In this document: piece after piece, positions 6,273 to 41,153 of the stretch
How the letters are laid out: the number at the start of each line of letters is the position of its first letter
Position numbering within the stretch: the first letter of the stretch is position 1
Source of the DNA: a virus
Length of the DNA stretch: 41,208 bases
Direction: 5' to 3' (one strand)
UHGV virus genome: UHGV-0041851
Notes under the pieces: generated by a model
Databases searched by the model: none
What the model was told of the DNA's origin: nothing
The model's input: the letters and a program-made list of their open reading frames with translations, nothing else
Position numbers and translations under genes: made by a program

Positions 6273-7387
6273 GAACGTCATTAGTCACCCGTGAAGAGAT
6301 GATCGAGGCAATTGAACAGCACACTGCCTGTATCAGTACCAGGGATATACCAGGCGTTATTGCCAATTACTTCATGATCACCAAACAACTTTACCGGAGA
6401 AAGGACAAGAACGCGGTTCACCGTATCCTGTTGTCTGATATCCGCGAATACCTGCTCGAACAGGGTCATCTGAATTACGCAACCGCCGCAGCCGAAGCAC
6501 GCAAGGAGGCACACAGAATGAAAGCAACTAACGTTAAATCAGAAAAAATTCATGCACCTTCAGTTCAAGAATCGGAGCTGGTGGTTGTTCAGAATCAGTC
6601 TGATGAAATTCCCGTTCTGGAATGGCAGGGAGTGCGTGTAGTGACAACCGAGACTCTTGCTAGAGGGTATGGGACAGAAACAATCCGTATTCGCCAAAAT
6701 CATCATGAGAACAAAGTACGCTTTGTTGAAGGGAAGCACTTTTTCAAAGTTGAAGGAGAATCATTGCGCGAGTTGAAGCACAGAGTAGCTTTAAACTACT
6801 CTGTAAAAATTGCTCGCAATGTTCGCTCACTCACCCTCTGGACAGAACGCGGCGCAGCCCGCCACGCTAAAATGCTCGAAACCGATCAGGCATGGGCATT
6901 CTTTGAAAAACTGGAAGACAGCTACTTCCGACAAAAAGAACAGCAACCGATCGCAATCCCCCAGACGCTTCCTGAAGCCCTACGCCTGGCTGCCGAACTG
7001 GCTGAACAAAAGCAACTTCTGGAACAGAAAGCCCACCAGCTAAATCAGCAGCTGGTGGCCGCCGCTCCTAAAGTCGATTTTGCCGACCGGGTATCAGTAG
7101 CTAAAGGGATCCTGATTGGGAATTTTGCAAAGGTTGTTGGACTTAAACAAAACGCGCTGTTTGTCTGGTTACGGGAGAACGGCATCCTGATAGCGTCCGG
7201 TGGACGTAAAAATGTGCCGTTCCAGCAGTACATCAACGCGGGGTATTTCACGGTGAAAGAAGTGGTGCTGGATGATGAAGATGGCTACCAGATACGGTTG
7301 ACGCCTCAATTAACGGGTAAAGGCCAGCAGTGGTTGACGCGTAAACTGCTCGATGCTGGCTTGTTAAAACCGGTGGCGGCTGAATAA
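6269..7387 (+). CDS. ant1: Antirepressor Ant1 (ORF6N-like central domain, KilA-C-like C-terminus); nested Ant2 from in-frame ATG at 6518
   Basis: 372 aa (about 42 kDa); in-frame ATG at codon 84 has a strong AAGGAGG Shine-Dalgarno and gives 289 aa (about 32 kDa), matching the reported 42/32-kDa Ant1/Ant2 pair; domain call is from motif recognition only. Confidence 0.7.
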   Translation: MRTSLVTREEMIEAIEQHTACISTRDIPGVIANYFMITKQLYRRKDKNAVHRILLSDIREYLLEQGHLNYATAAAEARKEAHRMKATNVKSEKIHAPSVQESELVVVQNQSDEIPVLEWQGVRVVTTETLARGYGTETIRIRQNHHENKVRFVEGKHFFKVEGESLRELKHRVALNYSVKIARNVRSLTLWTERGAARHAKMLETDQAWAFFEKLEDSYFRQKEQQPIAIPQTLPEALRLAAELAEQKQLLEQKAHQLNQQLVAAAPKVDFADRVSVAKGILIGNFAKVVGLKQNALFVWLRENGILIASGGRKNVPFQQYINAGYFTVKEVVLDDEDGYQIRLTPQLTGKGQQWLTRKLLDAGLLKPVAAE

Positions 7388-7419
7388 TGGAAGAATGCCC
7401 GGTTGATGCCGGGCATAAT

Positions 7420-31610: not shown

Positions 31611-31770
31611 TATGAGATAACCTCAAAAGCCCGTATTATACATCAGATTCAACTAATTAGAGGCATCACCAGAAATGGCTTGCTTCCATAGTCTAAAGCA
31701 AGCCACAACACATTTACCTTAAGTACACAATTAACATACCAGAACAGGTTATTTTAACACTATCAGGGAG

Positions 31771-32079
31771 TTAATATACGATCTGGTCTACATGATTACC
31801 AAAATCATCGTCGTCGTCCTCATCGCCACCATCTACAGATGGCCAATCAACAAACCAGCCAGCGTAAAGATGCAGCGTTCGGAGAACATCACTTACGGGA
31901 GCATCAAGGGTGTTAACGAATCCCATATAGCTATTGGGATTTGCCCCAGCTATGGCTTCAGTGATCATGTCCTCGGTAATGTCACCGGAGATAATGCTTA
32001 AACGCCCGGAAACTTCTTCATTATCATCAAATTCGATAATGGCATCTCCGCCTAATGGCGCTGCGATTTTAATCTGCAT
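31771..32079 (-). CDS. Small highly acidic hypothetical protein at the distal end of the dar operon
   Basis: 102 aa; start overlaps the ddrB stop; C-terminus GGDEDDDDDFGNHVD. Confidence 0.5.
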   Translation of the reverse strand: MQIKIAAPLGGDAIIEFDDNEEVSGRLSIISGDITEDMITEAIAGANPNSYMGFVNTLDAPVSDVLRTLHLYAGWFVDWPSVDGGDEDDDDDFGNHVDQIVY

Positions 32080-35056
32080 TATTTAGCTCCTTTGCCACAC
32101 CTAATAACAGTTCCAGCAATCCGTCACCATTCATCAGTGATGCGGCAGCGGCCTCTTTGTCATGATACAACTGAAGAGCCATAGAGAATACTTCCGTTGC
32201 TGACGTTTTGGAAATAGTCGGTGATTTCTGCCGAATTTTCCCGGTGTTACTTACTGAGGCTGGCGGGTATACCTTCGCCATATAAATATTACTCAATCGA
32301 GATCTGAAGCACCATTCAGGCTTGCCACGCCCACCGATATTAACGAAAGATGGCTTATCCCCTTCAACATTGGCCTTCAGGAATGACCGGGCTTTCTCTA
32401 ACAAACCAGGGTTACTGTACTCAAGATGATGACCCAGCTCGTGCCACAGTGCACTTGCATTTTCATCGTTCAAATTGACAGCAACAACACCATTTAGATT
32501 TGCATATGCCCTTCCCTGGTGGTGAACCACCTTTGATAAGGTCGAAATTTTACCGCCGGTCAGGCGATAAATATCAGCAAGTTCCTTGCGCAGGTCTATC
32601 CCACCATTCTGTCCAGCGCGGGCTTCTTCCACTTCTTCCGTGATAAAAGAGTCGGCCCACTCAAGAGCTTTTTCTTCAGATACGGATGAGTTGGCGATCG
32701 CACTGTTCATGGCAGATAACACTTTCTCGTGGACCGAACCCATACTTCGCTGATTCATTTGCCAGCGTGTCTGCGGGTTATATGAGAATCGCTTAAGTAG
32801 TTGGTCAAGATGCTCAAGTTCTTCTTCGCTGACATACTTTTTAGCCTCACAAATAATGCCGGGGAGAATATTGCCGTTAGGATTAAACGCTCGCGAAAGG
32901 AAGAGTTTCAGCGCCCCCATGCCCTCCGATGCTTCAATATCACCAATAACCCGGTTAACAATGGCCGCACTCTTCGGATTAGCATCCGCCAACGCTCTGG
33001 CTACGATTTGCAGGGACGATACGACCTCACGCTGCATATCCGTCCTGATCTCATCAATAAACTCTGGCGTTATGCCGTGCTCTTTAAGGATATCCCTGCC
33101 TTCCGCCGTTACCCCATCGATATCACCGACATGTTTATTAACCCGACTTTGCAATGCCTTAAATGCCTTCAGAATTCCACGGGCATCATCCACTTTACTA
33201 ACGGCCTTCCTGAATGCTGGCAAGAAGTCAGAGTTAACCTCATTTTGTTGATCGGCCCACTGAATGGAGGCTTCTTTCATCTCGTCCAGAGTCAGATCAC
33301 CCAACGCGGTATGGTCTGTGAATATGAGCGACAACCTCTGAACCATTTCTGCCAATGGTGATGCCGAATGCGCCGCGCTAAGGAATGCTTTCACCCTGGT
33401 TGGGCGAATGGAAAACCAGTCAATAGCTGGTGGCATATCTCCGTTTTTTATCGCCTGCGCTATCTCATCAAAGCCGTCGCGCCCAAGGGAGGATGCGTGA
33501 TTTAACAATCCGCGAAGTAACGAATTGCTGATACCGAATAATCGGCACCATTTTTTTACGTCGGCAACAGGCATTCGGACAAAATGCGCAAGCACTTGTA
33601 CAAGCTGCTCATCCTGGGGATCGGTGCGGGATAGCAGCCTGATCAGATGAATAATGTCTTTGATGCCGGATGCCCGATGTAATAGCAAGCTGGTATATGG
33701 AGCAACACCGTTGTAACTACCGCCGGAAACGGACTCGAAAAGACCGCCGGATATCCCTTGCATGCCTTCGTTTTCCAGTTCCTGAGACACCTGGCGAAGG
33801 ATATCCTGTAACGACACATCGCCGCCGCCAAACATATCCCCGAGCGCCTGGCCCTGGTGCTGTAACTCATCATTGATACGTTGCGCCATCAACTTAAAGG
33901 CGGTGGCCATACGCTTCGCGCTACGGTTATTCGCGACGATGAACAACGCGAGTGCTTTCACTTCCGGGGCCGTTTCGCTGAACATATCCCCCTGAGCAAT
34001 AACATCGGTAATATGCTGGCCTGACTCCTTCGATTGCCTTACCAGGTCTACCGCATCTTTCAATGCCGCCAGCGCCTTTTTATCGAGGCTATCCGCTGTC
34101 TCAATGCCATCAACAATAGTTGTCACAGCCTGCTTGTGCGCTTCTCCTGACAAAGCCTGCATCTGGACAAAATCATTGGCTGCCGCATTAAGCGCCGTCA
34201 GAACATTACGCATATCCGGATCAGGTTCTTCTGCAACCATCCTTACCAGGCGCGCATCCTTATATGCCTTGGCAAAGATCGCGTTTTGTATACGGTCTAC
34301 AAGTTGCCGTGTTGGTCGCCCATCTTCAGTTACAAGGCCAGCCGCCTGTGTGGCACCAACTTGCGTCATAAATCCGCGAATAAACGTGTCATTACTGCGG
34401 CTAAGCAGATCTCCGCTTTCTGACGGGTTAAAAAGCGCCATCATCGCCGGTGTTATGCTGTCGGCATCAACAAAAGCCTTTTCACTGGCTGCCATTTCCT
34501 GAAGATCAGAAATATTTGAGTCCTTGGCAAACTGAACGCGGTCAACCTTAGTTAACCGGCGGCGCACCAGTACCGGAGCCGTCATTGATTCAACCTTTTC
34601 AGGTCGTATGCCGAATTCGGTCGCATGATCAATCAGGTACTCACGATACCGATCCGCATTGCCGTCCTGATAGGCTTTAATGATCCCCATGGTCCGTCCA
34701 TTACCTGACTCAACGGCATTGTCCTCACCAATTATCGGCGCGCCATGGCTGGATAGACCGGAATCGGTAAGCTGAGCAGGCCGCAAATCCTTGGATATCT
34801 GGTTAACCTGAAGAAGGCTGGATGCGCGGGTCCGGTCGCGCGGTTGAAGTTCCTGGGGATAGTCAGGATTAATTTTCCCATCCAGAGTATTGGATACCAA
34901 AAGAGCTGAGGCATCGACGATATCAAACGCTGTTTTTACCTCGTCTCCCTTCGCTGTCACCACATACGAAACCCGCCCATAATCGGGCAAGTTCTTTAGC
35001 AGCTCGATCAGCGTTTCTATGCTGGTGGCCATTACCACCTGATCGCTTAAGCTCAT
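32069..35056 (-). CDS. ddrB: DdrB, large Dar-associated head protein (putative)
   Basis: 995-aa ORF immediately downstream of ddrA/darA on the same strand; assignment by size and synteny. Confidence 0.65.
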   Translation of the reverse strand: MSLSDQVVMATSIETLIELLKNLPDYGRVSYVVTAKGDEVKTAFDIVDASALLVSNTLDGKINPDYPQELQPRDRTRASSLLQVNQISKDLRPAQLTDSGLSSHGAPIIGEDNAVESGNGRTMGIIKAYQDGNADRYREYLIDHATEFGIRPEKVESMTAPVLVRRRLTKVDRVQFAKDSNISDLQEMAASEKAFVDADSITPAMMALFNPSESGDLLSRSNDTFIRGFMTQVGATQAAGLVTEDGRPTRQLVDRIQNAIFAKAYKDARLVRMVAEEPDPDMRNVLTALNAAANDFVQMQALSGEAHKQAVTTIVDGIETADSLDKKALAALKDAVDLVRQSKESGQHITDVIAQGDMFSETAPEVKALALFIVANNRSAKRMATAFKLMAQRINDELQHQGQALGDMFGGGDVSLQDILRQVSQELENEGMQGISGGLFESVSGGSYNGVAPYTSLLLHRASGIKDIIHLIRLLSRTDPQDEQLVQVLAHFVRMPVADVKKWCRLFGISNSLLRGLLNHASSLGRDGFDEIAQAIKNGDMPPAIDWFSIRPTRVKAFLSAAHSASPLAEMVQRLSLIFTDHTALGDLTLDEMKEASIQWADQQNEVNSDFLPAFRKAVSKVDDARGILKAFKALQSRVNKHVGDIDGVTAEGRDILKEHGITPEFIDEIRTDMQREVVSSLQIVARALADANPKSAAIVNRVIGDIEASEGMGALKLFLSRAFNPNGNILPGIICEAKKYVSEEELEHLDQLLKRFSYNPQTRWQMNQRSMGSVHEKVLSAMNSAIANSSVSEEKALEWADSFITEEVEEARAGQNGGIDLRKELADIYRLTGGKISTLSKVVHHQGRAYANLNGVVAVNLNDENASALWHELGHHLEYSNPGLLEKARSFLKANVEGDKPSFVNIGGRGKPEWCFRSRLSNIYMAKVYPPASVSNTGKIRQKSPTISKTSATEVFSMALQLYHDKEAAAASLMNGDGLLELLLGVAKELNNAD

Positions 35057-35068
35057 CCCTGTTACGCC

Positions 35069-35434
35069 TTATGCTGCCTCTTTAATGTTGGCGGCTATCC
35101 ATGCCGCCGTGTGCTGTTTAACCTGGTCCAGGTCGATGTATGTGCCAACATATTGACTCAAATCCTGCAAGGTACCGATAAATGCATCGGTGCTCTGATC
35201 GACGAATTTATCAGCCAGGAAATCAGCAACCAGTTTTGGCACACCATCATGTTCCGAAGGTTGTTTTTCCTCGCCACTACCACCTCCGGACGCGCCGTAC
35301 CCCATCTGTTGCATGATCTGGTCGATTTCATCGCTGATATCCAGCAACTCCATGCCACTCGCGGTAGCCGCTTTGGACATCAGAGCATCCAACTTATCGC
35401 TGAGATCCATTAACTCAATAGCTGATAGTGTCAT
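35069..35434 (-). CDS. ddrA: DdrA (putative)
   Basis: 121-aa acidic ORF overlapping the darA stop. Confidence 0.55.
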   Translation of the reverse strand: MTLSAIELMDLSDKLDALMSKAATASGMELLDISDEIDQIMQQMGYGASGGGSGEEKQPSEHDGVPKLVADFLADKFVDQSTDAFIGTLQDLSQYVGTYIDLDQVKQHTAAWIAANIKEAA

Positions 35435-37350
35435 GCCGCTACCCCCGCTTTCTGGATTGCTACCAGCAGATCAGCCAGGTGGCGAGCAGCGCCATTAACC
35501 AGCTCTTCGTTTTCCTCAAAACGCCCGGCAGCCTGAAGGGCTGCAATCGCTTCCCGGACATTGCCCCGGGCGTTACGGATCTCCGCCATGTCAGTGCTTT
35601 GCATATCCATCACGTTATTGAGATATTCAATGGCTTTATTAGCCTCTGCATCTGCTTCGCTAACCGTTTCATCAGGCTGTGCCGGGGCAGGTTCTGGCTG
35701 AGTAATCTCACCGACTTCGGCCTGCAATGCATTGATCATGCTCTGCACCATTTTTTCGGTGCCAGCGCCCCCCGGATACGCAATATTGGGGAAAGTTTTT
35801 TGAAACTGAGTTTTCAGCATTACGCGGAACTCGTCTGGTGAGCTGGTGGCCAGCTCCAGAGCTTTTTGTGCATATTTGCCAAACGGACCATTAGTAAGTG
35901 TCTTCGCCAAGAAGTCGAAAGAATCCTCGCGAGGCAATAACTTCAGGTCGTACTCACTCATTTGCTGATCAGAAAGCGGGGTATCGTAAGTAGCAATGCC
36001 GTAGCGTGCATATTCATAATACGGGTCACCTTCATCAGGGCGCGGCAGAATTGCTTTGTTACCTTCAGGTATTGCGCCAGGGGCCGCCGGACGCATTTGC
36101 AGGGCATATCGATATGCACCTACAGAGACTTCTGGTTCAGGCGAAGAGCTACCGGTATCCTCCGCTGGTTCAGGTTCGACGTTTTCCGGTTTATGTTCTT
36201 CTGGTTGGACCAGGTATTCCGATACATTACCCGCTTTATAGGCTTTAAACAGCTTGCCGATCGCATCTGCCATGTCCACACCCTGTATGGATTTAGCCTT
36301 GATCATGTACACGCTGCCATCCGAATCGGTTAACTGGATATACCCTTCACCGTCCTCAATGAATTGCTTCATTGATGCACCATTACTGAGCGTCACTTCC
36401 CCGTTCATATGCATACGATTTTTGATACTTGCAAGGCGATCCGTCATCGCGCGAGAGTGTCCACCAGTCATCCCCGCAGGAGCAATGGTTTCGCGCCCAC
36501 CAGTTCGATTGAGCTGATCAATCTCCGTCTGCAAACGCTCATTCTCTTCATAAAGAGAATCCGCTTCCGATGCAACAGCGTTAATTTTCTGCTCCAGATC
36601 TACCTTCTGCCCTTCTACCGCTGCCACCTGATCCGCGAGGTCGCTCATGGCATCCTCTTTCTGGTCACTGTCAGCCTGTAGTTGGGTTATTTCATCAACC
36701 AGGGCTTTTTTCTTCTTCTGCGCACGCTGGAATTTTGCCGAGTTTTTCTCTGCAAGGTTGGCAAGTTTCATGGTGACCTGCGCCAGCGTCATATCACGTC
36801 CACTCATCGGAGCAACGGTATGAGTAACGTCTTTTTTATTCAGTAAGAACTGGAAAGCAATCAGCGTATCGCTATTGGTGATCCGGTTTTCCGCTGTCGG
36901 GCTATGAAACAGAATGCTGATAGTCTGACCATCACTGAGCGGAATAATGGCTGGCAGGACCGGCAGCCCGTTAACGTTACGTGCCCGGCCAATTTCAGCC
37001 CCGCCGATCGCGCGTGCACCGTTCTGGGCCACATCCCCCGTTTTATCACTCCCCGCAGAGATTCCGGTACCATTCAGCTTCTGGTTTAATGCCCGGACAA
37101 ATGCCTGCATGGTCCGGTGTAACTGCAAACGAGTAGAACTAATCGCCTCCAGTAAATCCGTAGCACACCAGTGGATCGGCGTGTCATAGAAGAACGTAGC
37201 CTCGATTTCCTCCAGGGTGTTGGATTCCGTCATCAGATAGCGGTCCTCACCGGCCATTAATGCGCGATATTCATCATCAGTCACTGGCGGGGGAAGCACG
37301 TCAAGCCCAGGCTTGATCGTCACCCCTTTATTGATATTGAACTGTTCCAT
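35431..37350 (-). CDS. darA: DarA, defence against restriction / internal head protein
   Basis: 639-aa ORF, the size reported for P1 DarA; central coiled-coil region; follows hdf. Confidence 0.8.
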   Translation of the reverse strand: MEQFNINKGVTIKPGLDVLPPPVTDDEYRALMAGEDRYLMTESNTLEEIEATFFYDTPIHWCATDLLEAISSTRLQLHRTMQAFVRALNQKLNGTGISAGSDKTGDVAQNGARAIGGAEIGRARNVNGLPVLPAIIPLSDGQTISILFHSPTAENRITNSDTLIAFQFLLNKKDVTHTVAPMSGRDMTLAQVTMKLANLAEKNSAKFQRAQKKKKALVDEITQLQADSDQKEDAMSDLADQVAAVEGQKVDLEQKINAVASEADSLYEENERLQTEIDQLNRTGGRETIAPAGMTGGHSRAMTDRLASIKNRMHMNGEVTLSNGASMKQFIEDGEGYIQLTDSDGSVYMIKAKSIQGVDMADAIGKLFKAYKAGNVSEYLVQPEEHKPENVEPEPAEDTGSSSPEPEVSVGAYRYALQMRPAAPGAIPEGNKAILPRPDEGDPYYEYARYGIATYDTPLSDQQMSEYDLKLLPREDSFDFLAKTLTNGPFGKYAQKALELATSSPDEFRVMLKTQFQKTFPNIAYPGGAGTEKMVQSMINALQAEVGEITQPEPAPAQPDETVSEADAEANKAIEYLNNVMDMQSTDMAEIRNARGNVREAIAALQAAGRFEENEELVNGAARHLADLLVAIQKAGVAA

Positions 37351-37963: not shown

Positions 37964-38384
37964 CCTGTGCGAGATTTATTACGTAACTTCTGCGGATTTG
38001 CTGAGTAACAGGGAAAATCCGATACAACGGGTTAATGAACGAGTCGCCATGCGTAACCATGACGTTGAAATGCCACAGTCGCTCTCCTTTACCCATATAT
38101 TCAGTGGGTATGTACAACCATTCACTGTTTTCGCCCTGTTCAGCCGACGTCAAACAACGTTGTTCGCCTTCAATCACTGTCGTCGGCTTCTGAACATCGC
38201 GGATCCAATATCTGACCGTTGCGCCGCGCAAAAACGGGAATTTAGACCGGTATTTGAACGGCACCCGGATGAAACCCGGTTTAATTTCCACATCACCAAG
38301 TTCTAAATGCGTGATGTCCTTGCGTTTTAGCAAATAGCGATCGGCTAAGGCTAACGCAAGAACGCATACACCCCAGCCAATCAT
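37941..38384 (-). CDS. lydB: LydB (putative antiholin)
   Basis: 147-aa ORF overlapping the lydA stop; operon position. Confidence 0.55.
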   Translation of the reverse strand: MIGWGVCVLALALADRYLLKRKDITHLELGDVEIKPGFIRVPFKYRSKFPFLRGATVRYWIRDVQKPTTVIEGEQRCLTSAEQGENSEWLYIPTEYMGKGERLWHFNVMVTHGDSFINPLYRIFPVTQQIRRSYVINLAQDVSDDEK

Positions 38385-38710
38385 TTCCCGCCTCCCTTTT
38401 TCACCAAACTTGTAAGAACATTCAGAATGCTATCGATATTCACTCGTTTCATCCCTGAAATCACCTCATGACCGTTATTGCTGGCTATCGTTACCATTAA
38501 GTACGTAATTGATAACTCCCAGCCCTCGTGTTGCCCCAATAGGTACGCCACCGCGCCAGCTGTCACTGCAACAAAGATCTCCGTAACCAATCCCAACAAA
38601 TTGCCAGACTGGCGACCGTCTCGGACATCCATCAGGAACGTGCCTATCCCACCAATTACTGAAAGCAGGAGCGCAATAGCAACTGGAGCTAATTCCTGTG
38701 TGTCAAGCAC
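38381..38710 (-). CDS. lydA: LydA holin (putative)
   Basis: 109 aa with hydrophobic transmembrane-like segments and a charged C-terminus (KKGGGK). Confidence 0.6.
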   Translation of the reverse strand: MLDTQELAPVAIALLLSVIGGIGTFLMDVRDGRQSGNLLGLVTEIFVAVTAGAVAYLLGQHEGWELSITYLMVTIASNNGHEVISGMKRVNIDSILNVLTSLVKKGGGK

Positions 38711-38784
38711 AAGTTCCCTCCTACGTTGTCAGGAGGTAATGGTATGCAAAGTAACTTCTCAACCGGTTATGTTGCATAAGAGAC

Positions 38785-39048
38785 TTACCTATTCAACCGA
38801 CTTTTGGAACCTTCAATAATAAGCCTGCTATTGGCGCTGAAAATAAGAACCATGCAGCTCTGAAGGCTTTCATTCATGTCCTTATATTCCGCGAGATACA
38901 TGCCAATAAAGCCAGCAAGTACGGCGGAAATACATTCGGCCAGCAATTTCTTGCATGAAGACTCGTAACGGTTTTCACATAGCCCACTCAAATACGAATA
39001 CACCCCACCAAGAAGGGATAACATCACGATATGTACATAAAATGTCAT
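38785..39048 (-). CDS. Small membrane protein (holin-like), first gene of the lyd/dar transcription unit
   Basis: 87-aa ORF with two hydrophobic segments, upstream of lydA. Confidence 0.4.
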   Translation of the reverse strand: MTFYVHIVMLSLLGGVYSYLSGLCENRYESSCKKLLAECISAVLAGFIGMYLAEYKDMNESLQSCMVLIFSANSRLIIEGSKSRLNR

Positions 39049-39175
39049 TTTTTACCTATACAACAGTAAGTTGAACAACATTTGAGAACGGTATGCACTT
39101 TGTGATTTCCACACACACTGGTTTTGTTAATTAAAACCTGTAGCTTGCAATAAATAACGATAGTGGGCAGAAAAT

Positions 39176-39361
39176 ATGCTAATAGGCTATGTACGCATAT
39201 AGACAAATGAACAAAACACAGCTATGCAGTGAAAAGCACTTGAAAGCGCAGGATGTGAGCTAATTTTTGCGAATAAGGCGAGCAGCAAAAAAGCTGGGCA
39301 CCCTGGGTTAAAAAAGGTTCTGCGTATGCTTTCCAGAGGTGATACCCTAGTCTCGGACTAG
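39176..39361 (+). pseudogene. Decayed N-terminal fragment of a second serine DNA invertase gene
   Basis: Translation MLIGYVRI*TNEQNTAMQ*KALESAGCELIFANKASSKKAGHPGLKKVLRMLSRGDTLVSD* parallels the N-terminus of the intact invertase (IGYIRVSTNDQNTDLQRNALNCAGCELIFEDK..PGLKKLLRTLSEGDTLV) but has two in-frame stops and is truncated. Confidence 0.7.
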
Positions 39362-39363
39362 GG
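39345..39363. repeat. Perfect 19-bp palindrome at the truncation point of the invertase pseudogene
   Basis: CCCTAGTC-TCG-GACTAGGG, 8-bp arms with a 3-bp spacer. Confidence 0.8.
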
Positions 39364-39483
39364 ACAACATTTCGAGAACAGTTTTCATTAGCGGTCAGCA
39401 GGCGCTAGATACATCGAATTGATGTGCCGCGCGATAAATGTACCTATTCTATCAAGATAAATTACACCGACGCGGCATTAGAA

Positions 39484-40056
39484 TTACAGCTCAGATTGAG
39501 TTTGGCGCTTCTCTACAGGATGATAACGATAAATCGTCGATACACCGATATCGTAAATAATTGCCAACTGTTTCCTGCTGTAGCCATTTTCGATCAACCT
39601 CGCTATTTGCTCATGTTGTTCTTTTGTCAACTTCGGGCGACGTCCGCCAATGCGTCCCTGTTCGCGTGCAGCTGCCAGTCCGGCCAGTGTTCTCTCAACA
39701 ATTAATTCACGTTCCATTTCTGCTAAAGCACCCATGACATGAAAAAAGAAACGCCCCATGGGTGTTGATGTGTCAATACTGTCTGTCAGACTACGGAAAT
39801 TAACACCTTTTTCCCGCAACTCCTCTATAAGCGTGATAAGGTGTTTCATACTTCTGCCAAGCCTATCCAGCTTCCAGACAACCAGCGTATCTCCTTCTGA
39901 TAACGTTCTGAGCAGCTTTTTCAAGCCTGGTCTGGCTGACTTTGTTCCGCTTATTTTATCTTCAAAAATCAGTTCACATCCTGCGCAGTTCAGTGCATTT
40001 CTTTGTAAATCTGTGTTTTGGTCATTTGTTGACACACGAATGTAGCCAATTTGCAT
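39484..40056 (-). CDS. cin: Serine DNA invertase (Cin/Gin/Hin/Min family)
   Basis: 190 aa from the ATG at 40056 (AGAGG Shine-Dalgarno); catalytic N-terminus IGYIRVSTNDQ, VWKLDRLGRS and C-terminal HTH; adjacent to the tail-fibre cassettes. Confidence 0.85.
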   Translation of the reverse strand: MQIGYIRVSTNDQNTDLQRNALNCAGCELIFEDKISGTKSARPGLKKLLRTLSEGDTLVVWKLDRLGRSMKHLITLIEELREKGVNFRSLTDSIDTSTPMGRFFFHVMGALAEMERELIVERTLAGLAAAREQGRIGGRRPKLTKEQHEQIARLIENGYSRKQLAIIYDIGVSTIYRYHPVEKRQTQSEL

Positions 40057-40116
40057 GAAAAACAACCTCTTTGTTTAGTTAAAAATACATCGTTGGTATA
40101 GGTAGGGATTAAGACT

Positions 40117-40312
40117 AAAACGTTGGTTTGGGGGAAGGCTCAGCATTGCCTGTTGGCGTACCTGTTCCGTGGCCCTCAGCCACTCCGCCAACGGGGTGGC
40201 TGAAATGTAACGGAGCAGCATTTTCTTCTGAAAAGTACCCAAATCTGGCAAAGGCTTACCCTACTAATAAATTGCCGGATTTACGCGGTGAATTTATTCG
40301 TGGCTGGGATGA
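40117..40312 (+). repeat. Conserved 5' block of tail-fibre cassette 1 (candidate crossover region)
   Basis: Near-identical to 40589-40792, including a 67-bp perfect identity (40188-40254 = 40660-40726) encoding TGWLKCNGAAFSSEKYPNLAK; begins with AAAACGTTGGTTT directly after a stop codon. Confidence 0.7.
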
Positions 40313-40589
40313 CGGACGTGGTGTGGATGCCGGGCGACAATTATTATCTTCACAGGGGGATGCAATAAGAAATATTGAGGGGTTCGCAGATGGCGGGATC
40401 GGCATGTCTTTTGATGCAATCAGAGGGGCTTTTTACGATGCAGGAACACGATCAGCGAGAATGCCGAATAACACAACTACTATAGACAAAACCGATGACC
40501 TTGGATTCGACGCCTCTCGTGTCGTGCCAACAGCTAATGAAAACCGTCCTCGTAATATTGCCTTTAATTATATCGTAAGGGCGGCATAA
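40128..40589 (+). CDS. Tail-fibre C-terminal tip cassette 1 (promoterless module)
   Basis: Frame is open from 40119; encodes PVPWPSATPPTGWLKCNGAAFSSEKYPNLAK..., resembling C-termini of lambda Stf / Mu-P1 S-type fibres, and ends with the conserved NIAFNYIVRAA. Confidence 0.7.
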   Translation: MGEGSALPVGVPVPWPSATPPTGWLKCNGAAFSSEKYPNLAKAYPTNKLPDLRGEFIRGWDDGRGVDAGRQLLSSQGDAIRNIEGFADGGIGMSFDAIRGAFYDAGTRSARMPNNTTTIDKTDDLGFDASRVVPTANENRPRNIAFNYIVRAA

Positions 40590-40792
40590 AAACGTTGGTT
40601 TAGGGGAAGGCTCGGCGCTGCCCGTTGGTGTGCCTGTTCCGTGGCCCTCCGCCACACCACCAACGGGGTGGCTGAAATGTAACGGAGCAGCATTTTCTTC
40701 TGAAAAGTACCCAAATCTGGCAAAGGTTTACCCAACGTTAAAATTACCTGATTTACGCGGTGAGTTTATCCGTGGTTGGGATGATTCGAGAG
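40589..40792 (+). repeat. Conserved 5' block of tail-fibre cassette 2
   Basis: Direct repeat of 40117-40312. Confidence 0.7.
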
Positions 40793-41103
40793 GGATTGAT
40801 ACAGGGCGTTCATTGCTAAGTGGTCAGACTGCAACATTTATTCGTACAGCTTTGCAGGATTATTACGGTGTCGATCTGACTACTAATGTCAAAGTAGGTA
40901 TCGCTTATGCTACTGCTGATTCTGTTATAACTGTTGGAAACCCTGCTAATCCTAAAGCAGGAGATAATAGCGATTATGTTCCAGCATCATCAGATAACTC
41001 CATAACAGGCACTCAAAGGACGGCAGAGGATAATTTTACCGGGGCATGGATATCAATGCGCCCCCGCAACGTTGCTTTTAATTACATTGTAAGGGCCACA
41101 TAA
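40630..41103 (+). CDS. Tail-fibre C-terminal tip cassette 2 (promoterless module)
   Basis: Frame is open from 40591; same conserved N-terminal block and C-terminal NVAFNYIVRAT, with a divergent middle region. Confidence 0.7.
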   Translation: MPVPWPSATPPTGWLKCNGAAFSSEKYPNLAKVYPTLKLPDLRGEFIRGWDDSRGIDTGRSLLSGQTATFIRTALQDYYGVDLTTNVKVGIAYATADSVITVGNPANPKAGDNSDYVPASSDNSITGTQRTAEDNFTGAWISMRPRNVAFNYIVRAT

Positions 41104-41153
41104 AAACGTTCCTTAAAAAGCTACGTGCCCAACCGTTGATGCTGTATAAATAA

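Follow-up and report, generated by a model that had tools for sequence, protein, structure and literature searches.

A cin remnant and a junction inverted repeat beside a Min-type invertase in a P1-like phage-plasmid genome

When a broken invertase reading frame lies next to an intact one, it may be asked whether the fragment was copied from its neighbour or has another origin. This question is raised by the virus genome UHGV-0041851 (41,208 nt, referred to here in its entirety as the window), in which the fragment also ends at an inverted repeat whose nature calls for explanation. The initial annotation had described the fragment as the decayed N-terminal part of an invertase with two in-frame stops, and this was borne out by the translation of 39176-39363 on the plus strand, MLIGYVRI*TNEQNTAMQ*KALESAGCELIFANKASSKKAGHPGLKKVLRMLSRGDTLVSD* (asterisks are stops), together with a match of residues 3-59 to the Pfam Resolvase N-terminal domain (profile positions 2-68/145, E = 2.8e-9). 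The first stop (TAG, 39200-39202) stands in place of the codon for the catalytic Ser9, the second (TGA, 39230-39232) is codon 19, and the HTH_7 domain was absent from the remnant in the Pfam search. With TAG at Ser9, half a Resolvase domain and no HTH, the fragment is not a functional serine recombinase. The neighbouring frame, on which the fragment converges as had been stated, has the catalytic serine, the full Resolvase domain and the C-terminal HTH (Table 1).

The origin of the fragment was approached by comparison with phage genomes using megablast. P1 31289-31836, which comprises lydC, the intergenic region and the 5' part of cin, matched window positions 38803-39352, and the match ended at 39352. 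This end lies directly after GGT GAT ACC CTA GTC, in agreement with the reported truncation after GDTLV, and in pairwise alignment to cin the break follows GGTGATACCCT(A/G)GTC. Over its 177 nt the remnant was 88.7% identical to P1 cin, and equally so to the intact cin of an IncY plasmid, while its identity to the adjacent invertase gene was 66.7%; the corresponding BLASTP counts were 49/59 identities with P1 Cin and 37/59 with the intact neighbour. Some 300 PLSDB plasmids that carry an intact cin match up to query position 177 exactly, which is position 39352. In P1 and in other P1-like plasmids an intact cin occupies the same place after lydC in the same orientation, and in the P1 annotation (NC_005856) it spans 31660-32220 and is followed by cixL and the C segment. 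The order darA-hdf-lydB-lydA-lydC-remnant-invertase(-)-crossover sites is that of P1-like phage-plasmids and agrees with what the p15B coordinates in the P1 GenBank notes imply, and the lydC frame is annotated as LydC in phage vB_EcoM-813R1 and is homologous to the P1 lydC region. The identity values and the syntenic position of cin together argue that the fragment is what is left of the resident gene, and it is best regarded as a syntenic cin remnant displaced by a Min/Pin-type module of invertase and tail-fibre cassettes. It shares with its P1 orthologue the ATG, the ribosome-binding-site region and the first 59 codons, but lacks everything past codon 59, including the C-terminal two-thirds with the HTH, and cixL.

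Table 1. Positions of the features discussed, in coordinates of the window
Feature	Position	Strand	Description
darA	35431-37350	-	P1-like gene order
hdf, lydB	between darA and lydA	-	P1-like gene order
lydA	38381-38710	-	P1-like gene order
lydC	38785-39048	-	holin-like, 87 aa; left syntenic anchor
Direct repeat, upstream copy ACAACATTTGAGAAC	39077-39091	+	
P1-homologous block	39087-39352	+	cin promoter/leader region and cin codons 1-59
cin remnant (pseudo-cin)	39176-39352	+	ATG, 59 codons, two in-frame stops
Homologue of the P1 cin recombinational enhancer (P1 31678-31749)	39194-39265		ungapped, 61/72 identical (our count)
Inverted repeat CCCTAGTC-TCG-GACTAGGG	39345-39363		left arm cin, right arm non-cin
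Junction filler TCGGACTAGGG(A)	39353-39364		11-12 nt, specific to the p15B-type lineage
Direct repeat, downstream copy ACAACATTTCGAGAAC	39364-39379		
Shared flank	39365-39419		55 nt, only in two Min-carrying P1-like lineages (p15B and pEc-050 types)
Invertase 3' flank	39420-39483	-	long hairpin GCCGCG...CGCGGC, ~38 nt between
Intact Min-type serine invertase	39484-40056	-	190 aa and stop; Resolvase and HTH_7 domains
First Din-type crossover site AAGACTAAAACG-TT-GGTTTGGGGGAA	40111-40136		
Second crossover site	~40583-40608		
Third crossover site	~41097-41122		
Tail-fibre C-terminal cassettes	40128-40589 and 40630-41103	same orientation	flanked by crossover sites

The initial annotation had taken the fragment for a second copy that arose by duplication or inversion of the neighbouring invertase. 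The two do belong to one protein family and are convergent, but a fragment that is closer to P1 cin than to its neighbour and that sits where P1 has its intact cin leaves this reading with virtually no credence. The wider suggestion that the locus carries the scar of a rearrangement was supported, as the remnant lies at the syntenic place of cin and its homology is broken off at 39352. An assembly artefact can be set aside to the same degree, and a sequencing error is ruled out, because both stops and the junction were invariant in 27 of 27 aligned copies and recurred in hundreds of independent assemblies. Comparison of the remnant with intact cin gave 20 differences, distributed 5/4/11 over the three codon positions, whereas two intact cin alleles differed from each other at four sites, all of them at third positions (0/0/4). 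That nine of the 20 differences fall at positions 1 and 2 points to relaxed constraint on the remnant. The predicted -10 box of cin, TAAAAT, reads TAAAAC here, and the spacer is 1 nt shorter.

The feature appears to be the known cin remnant of plasmid p15B, recorded decades ago. A note in the P1 GenBank record describes P1 31570-31832 as '89 pct identical (1 gap)' to p15B nt 7147-7408 (262 nt); when window positions 39087-39348 were compared with the same P1 interval, the lengths were 262 and 263 nt, with one gap and 89.7% identity, and 39349-39352 (an A/G mismatch, then GTC) extended the cin homology beyond this point. A further note in that record gives the cin enhancer region as 83% identical to p15B nt 6463-6533, and in the window 614 nt separate the end of the block from the segment of the intact invertase that is equivalent to the enhancer, as they do in the p15B coordinates. 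Plasmid MF510496 matched window positions 39176-39483 at 100%, and its authors put the identity between its invertible segment and the min region of p15B at 99% (PMC5786510). The exact sequence of the intact invertase was found in UniRef cluster Q05517_ECOLX ('DNA-invertase'). As expected of a truncated cin of the p15B type, the remnant lies in a P1-related replicon, with the lysis genes lydA-lydC on one side and a min-type invertase on the other, and consists of the cin leader and only the 5' 173-177 nt of the gene. Sandmeier and co-workers (1991, Nucleic Acids Res 19:5831) reportedly described a truncated 5' part of an invertase gene, homologous to cin, beside min in p15B. We take the remnant in the window to be this truncated cin ('psi-cin') of p15B from E. 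coli 15T- (EMBL X62121). The likenesses comprise the location between lydC and min, the 262-nt block with one gap and ~89% identity, the adjoining Min-type invertase, the multi-site invertible tail-fibre region and the 614-nt spacing; no difference was detectable in a comparison made through the coordinates and figures of the P1 notes. The identification draws on the P1 GenBank notes and one secondary paper, and text searches of the literature for a named cin pseudogene gave nothing relevant.

The intact invertase and its crossover sites are part of a Min/Pin-type inversion module, that of plasmid p15B. A Din-family crossover site was defined as 26 bp with two 12-bp inverted half-sites, an AAACC/GGTTT core and a 2-bp spacer, and the consensus of the Mu, P1, e14 and p15B sites is quoted in PMC4134206. 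The three sites in the window are centred on 40123/4, 40595/6 and 41109/10, and the arrangement from 40111 to 41122 indicates a probable multi-site Min-type shuffling region that runs off the end of the window. The min gene has an enhancer homologue of its own, according to the P1 GenBank notes on p15B. On its downstream side, ~65 nt (39420-39483) are common to pin-like prophage loci, chromosomal ones among them, with 67-82% identity, and the homology ends there; the hairpin in this interval may be what really signals the 3' end of the invertase cassette, and a weak terminator-like site was located at 39478-39464. In phage vB_EcoM-813R1 (ON470617.2, L002 6705-7276), which is otherwise 99% identical, the Min-type invertase is annotated as two CDS, 'Hin2' and 'Hin1', so that the gene there is either frameshifted or mis-assembled.

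The inverted repeat at the end of the remnant had been described as a perfect 19-bp palindrome. The 8-bp arms do pair throughout, but the structure is strictly 8-3-8, as the 3-nt spacer is not self-complementary. The claim that the truncation coincides with the repeat held, since cin homology ends at 39352, inside it. The left arm, the last 8 nt of the cin homology, is simply part of the cin coding sequence: CP099233, which has an intact cin, reads CCCTAGTC-GTATGG at this place. The right arm consists of 8 nt of the filler that repeat the final 8 nt of cin in inverted, complementary form, and for this reason the repeat is best read as a by-product of joining. Stems of 8 bp with loops of 0-6 nt are not rare, there being ~15 distinct ones in 41 kb; the coincidence of such a repeat with the break in homology is unlikely by chance, at roughly 1% by our own estimate. 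The palindrome occurred only once in the window, and a search of 185,579 genomes for the 19-mer returned an Escherichia P1-like contig and one unrelated Shewanella site, with ~4 chance hits expected. A REP-like element and an IS200/IS605-type end hairpin were rejected as candidates because the 19-mer is essentially unique to the junction.

Fifty-one copies of the repeat were read, 34 of which were perfect. Sixteen read GGCTAGGG, which gives a T/G mismatch, and one was compensated (CCCTAGCC/GGCTAGGG), this last form being confined to a single strain when 160 E. coli records were compared. With about one copy in three mismatched, constraint on the repeat is weak. In a 41-nt context the hairpin folded at -17 kcal/mol on the plus strand (z = -3.6) and at -13.7 on the minus strand, and the common variant has a G-U pair on the plus strand and a C-A mismatch on the minus strand. 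The proposal that the palindrome is a conserved protein-binding or recombination site found no support, given the mismatch in 16 of 51 copies, the dissimilarity to the crossover sites and the absence of the repeat from the homologous junction of a sister lineage, an absence that the initial annotation had itself named as counting against its reading. The repeat is thus most probably a lineage-specific scar of the junction and not a conserved site.

No source of the filler was detected within the window or beyond it, save for the inverted left arm. Wherever the right arm and its downstream flank (CTAGGGACAACATTTCGAG) were found together, the cin remnant lay to their left, in 22 of 22 IMG/VR contigs and in 24 of 24 metagenome contigs, which argues that the junction arose once; two additional IMG/VR hits were chance matches. 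No donor context that carries the right arm and flank without the stub was seen in the metagenomes or in IMG/VR. Should TCGGACTAGGGACAACATT occur in some donor beside a min-like gene that has no cin stub, the right arm would be imported sequence and not filler. The idea that the right flank is a decayed continuation of cin, in either orientation, was discarded, as local alignments were no better than those of shuffled sequences. Within the shared flank, the distance of CAACATT from GTTTTCATTAG is 9 nt in the p15B-type lineage and in the pEc-050-type lineage alike.

A direct repeat of 15/16 nt brackets the P1-homologous block, and its local alignment score of 27 was reached by none of 500 shuffles, the best of which scored 25. 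The upstream copy is confined to p15B-type loci and is located where P1 homology resumes past a ~70-nt divergent patch over the 5' end of lydC. This repeat is left unexplained by the model of a displaced cin. In IMGVR_UViG_2541047595_000008 (L016, minus strand, ~65-90) the sequence to the left of the upstream copy is replaced by AAAAGTTCGATTTATTCAACAAAGCC, which resembles a terminal repeat of the IS903 type and suggests an IS insertion directly beside the cin leader.

The junction was found at 95-100% identity in ~160 complete E. coli genomes, nearly always on plasmids of 90-120 kb, and in 148 PLSDB plasmids from E. coli, Klebsiella, Shigella and Salmonella. It was also present in 22 IMG/VR contigs, 24 metagenome contigs and two phage records. 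A sister lineage that lacks lydC is represented by pEc-050-T5-ESBL_3, a Salmonella Mbandaka plasmid and 18 E. coli records. Here too, a Min-type invertase faces a convergent cin remnant; its Min protein, WP_001165547.1, also occurs unchanged in a p15B-type plasmid, although the flanks of the two lineages are only 77-86% identical. The remnant of the sister lineage is more decayed as well as longer; it comprises cin nt 1-307 with deletions of 2 nt and 9 nt (NZ_CP086493.1, L005 2188-2484; also L009, L039 and L140), and is joined through an unrelated 19-nt filler, without an inverted repeat, to a point at CAACATT (39366) where homology with the window resumes. Homology between the 12-nt and 19-nt fillers was considered and dismissed, as a match at 7/20 positions is not meaningful.

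Other cin stubs arose independently of these. One type ends near nt 217 and is followed by unrelated DNA with no invertase alongside (L136 1501-1707, L138 1501-1705); another ends near nt 297 and is followed by a different invertase of 582 nt on the opposite strand (L137 1501-1786). For pSvP1 and pTZ20_1P, too, a truncated cin is described in the literature (PMC6906374). The stubs of the pEc-050-T5-ESBL_3 type, of pDETEC1/pEC12-3, of an E. marmotae plasmid and of pSvP1/pTZ20_1P resemble that in the window in being 5' pieces of cin that border a replaced or rearranged tail-fibre/invertase region, but differ in their end points, which are ~nt 217, 297 or 307 or are IS-mediated, and in their partner DNA. 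None of the other stub junctions that were read had an inverted repeat. The occurrence of stubs with several end points across P1-like plasmids suggests that breakpoints within cin are a recurrent outcome of module exchange. In IMGVR_UViG_2778261277_000016 (L044 ~2650-2760), an intact pin-like invertase is followed by a tandem 3' fragment of a second invertase, which starts in the vicinity of the conserved TPMGRFFF codons and not far from the nt 297-307 breakpoints of two cin stubs. On the strength of this proximity, diverged invertase genes may cross over preferentially in this region.

The remnant contains a homologue of the P1 cin recombinational enhancer, and a residual function of the stub was considered in this light. 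By definition, a Fis-dependent enhancer (sis) stimulates inversion in cis through a pair of Fis sites whose helical spacing is fixed. The homologue retains two presumed Fis-site regions at a spacing unchanged from P1, and the segment of the distal site is 100% identical in P1, the window and the sister lineage, the latter having lost 2 nt from the interval that separates the sites. Selection on this homologue was rejected, since substitutions are not depleted there and are in fact denser (11/72) than in the rest of the stub (9/105). That the stub and its terminal hairpin persist by acting in cis, the stub providing Min inversion with a further enhancer or with a Fis sink and the hairpin insulating min from antisense transcription out of the cin leader, is accordingly very unlikely, and any retained function of stub or hairpin seems decidedly improbable.

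One interpretation of these data, to which we assign a probability of about 80%, is that the fragment is the dead stub of a P1-type cin displaced by a Min-type module, with the hairpin as a by-product of the junction. The order of events and the formation of the filler we infer as follows. The window comes from a P1-like phage-plasmid of the p15B type, whose ancestor would have had a P1-type cin just after lydC, reading toward the invertible tail-fibre segment. A Min/Pin-type module would then have replaced the Cin-type module, with the left breakpoint within cin. The incoming module would have consisted of several tail-fibre C-terminal cassettes, Din-type crossover sites and an oppositely oriented invertase gene that came with its own enhancer and 3' flank. 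What remained of cin, namely its leader and 5' codons, would have been non-functional, and two nonsense codons and eight amino-acid replacements would have followed. The stub extends to nt 177 in the lineage of the window, where it is joined by 11-12 nt of filler, and to nt 307 in the sister lineage. The filler could derive from illegitimate joining, for example by fold-back or template-switch synthesis, or from chance, and the joining could date from the original event or from a later deletion of ~140 nt. The data fit one substitution with a later deletion as well as two independent acquisitions onto the same flank end.

In the latter case, two P1-like lineages would each have gained the Min cassette, with a fixed end near CAACATT (39366) and insertions at cin nt 177 and 307. 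It could be argued for this that different lengths of cin meet the same flank position through unrelated fillers of 12 and 19 nt, that the 16-nt direct repeat around the P1-homologous block resembles an insertion-site duplication, and that an identical Min protein is set between flanks of such modest identity. We nevertheless hold independent gain to be unlikely, as no copy of 39365-39419 was found outside the two lineages in E. coli genomes, IMG/VR or metagenomes, so that no donor or free cassette is known, the cassette has no associated transposase or integrase, and one event followed by an internal deletion needs fewer assumptions. It is more doubtful still that the junction was made by Cin or Min at a quasi-crossover site inside cin. 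Din-family invertases use quasi-sites at low frequency, and the breakpoint does lie within an invertase locus, but a crossover or quasi-site at the junction was rejected: there is no AAACC-NN-GGTTT core, the spacer is 3 nt and not 2, and the best match to the 28-nt window holding the first crossover site was 13/28. This origin is extremely improbable.

The remaining alternative is that the hairpin is functional, either as an RNA stem-loop that stops or stabilizes transcripts between the convergent units, namely transcripts running on from the former cin promoter antisense to min, or the min mRNA at its 3' end, or as a DNA site for a dimeric protein. The stable fold on the plus strand and the position between convergent genes are consistent with this, as is the finding that all internal polymorphisms keep plus-strand pairing (T-G in 16 copies, C-G in one strain); a G-U variant and a compensating double change would also fit weak selection. 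Note, however, that the compensated form is known from one strain and that template-switching in a near-palindrome could yield it without selection, that the common variant is mismatched on the minus strand and that the cin -10 box is altered. The 8-bp GC-containing stem with its 3-nt loop between convergent genes is reminiscent of a Rho-independent terminator, but the repeat is followed by no T-run, and hence no U-run, on either strand, the terminator consensus scan was silent and folding gave no support either, so that an intrinsic terminator was rejected, as the initial annotation had already held; nor was there an Rfam match at E <= 1 across 38700-40200. The hairpin is moreover missing from the sister lineage despite the same gene arrangement, and the 19-mer has no related copies in the genomes searched. 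A function of the hairpin is therefore improbable, and the displaced cin with a joining by-product remains the reading that we prefer.

The finding is real and had been accurately described, but it is ordinary, being a mosaic-junction scar at a locus of textbook phage mosaicism, and its relevance is mainly one of annotation. If the stub is recognized as such, neither an additional recombinase nor a duplication will be annotated in error in p15B-type plasmids, which are common in clinical Enterobacteriaceae, including carriers of mcr-1 such as MF510496. A small new detail is that the p15B-type junction consists of an 8-bp fold-back with 11-12 nt of filler, while the stub of the sister lineage is 130 nt longer, and this difference between the lineages is a marker for tracing the history of the substitution. 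Modules that switch host range, made up of an invertase and tail-fibre cassettes, are exchanged between P1-like plasmids and pin-type prophages; the breakpoints fall within the invertase gene, and the displaced gene leaves a stub.
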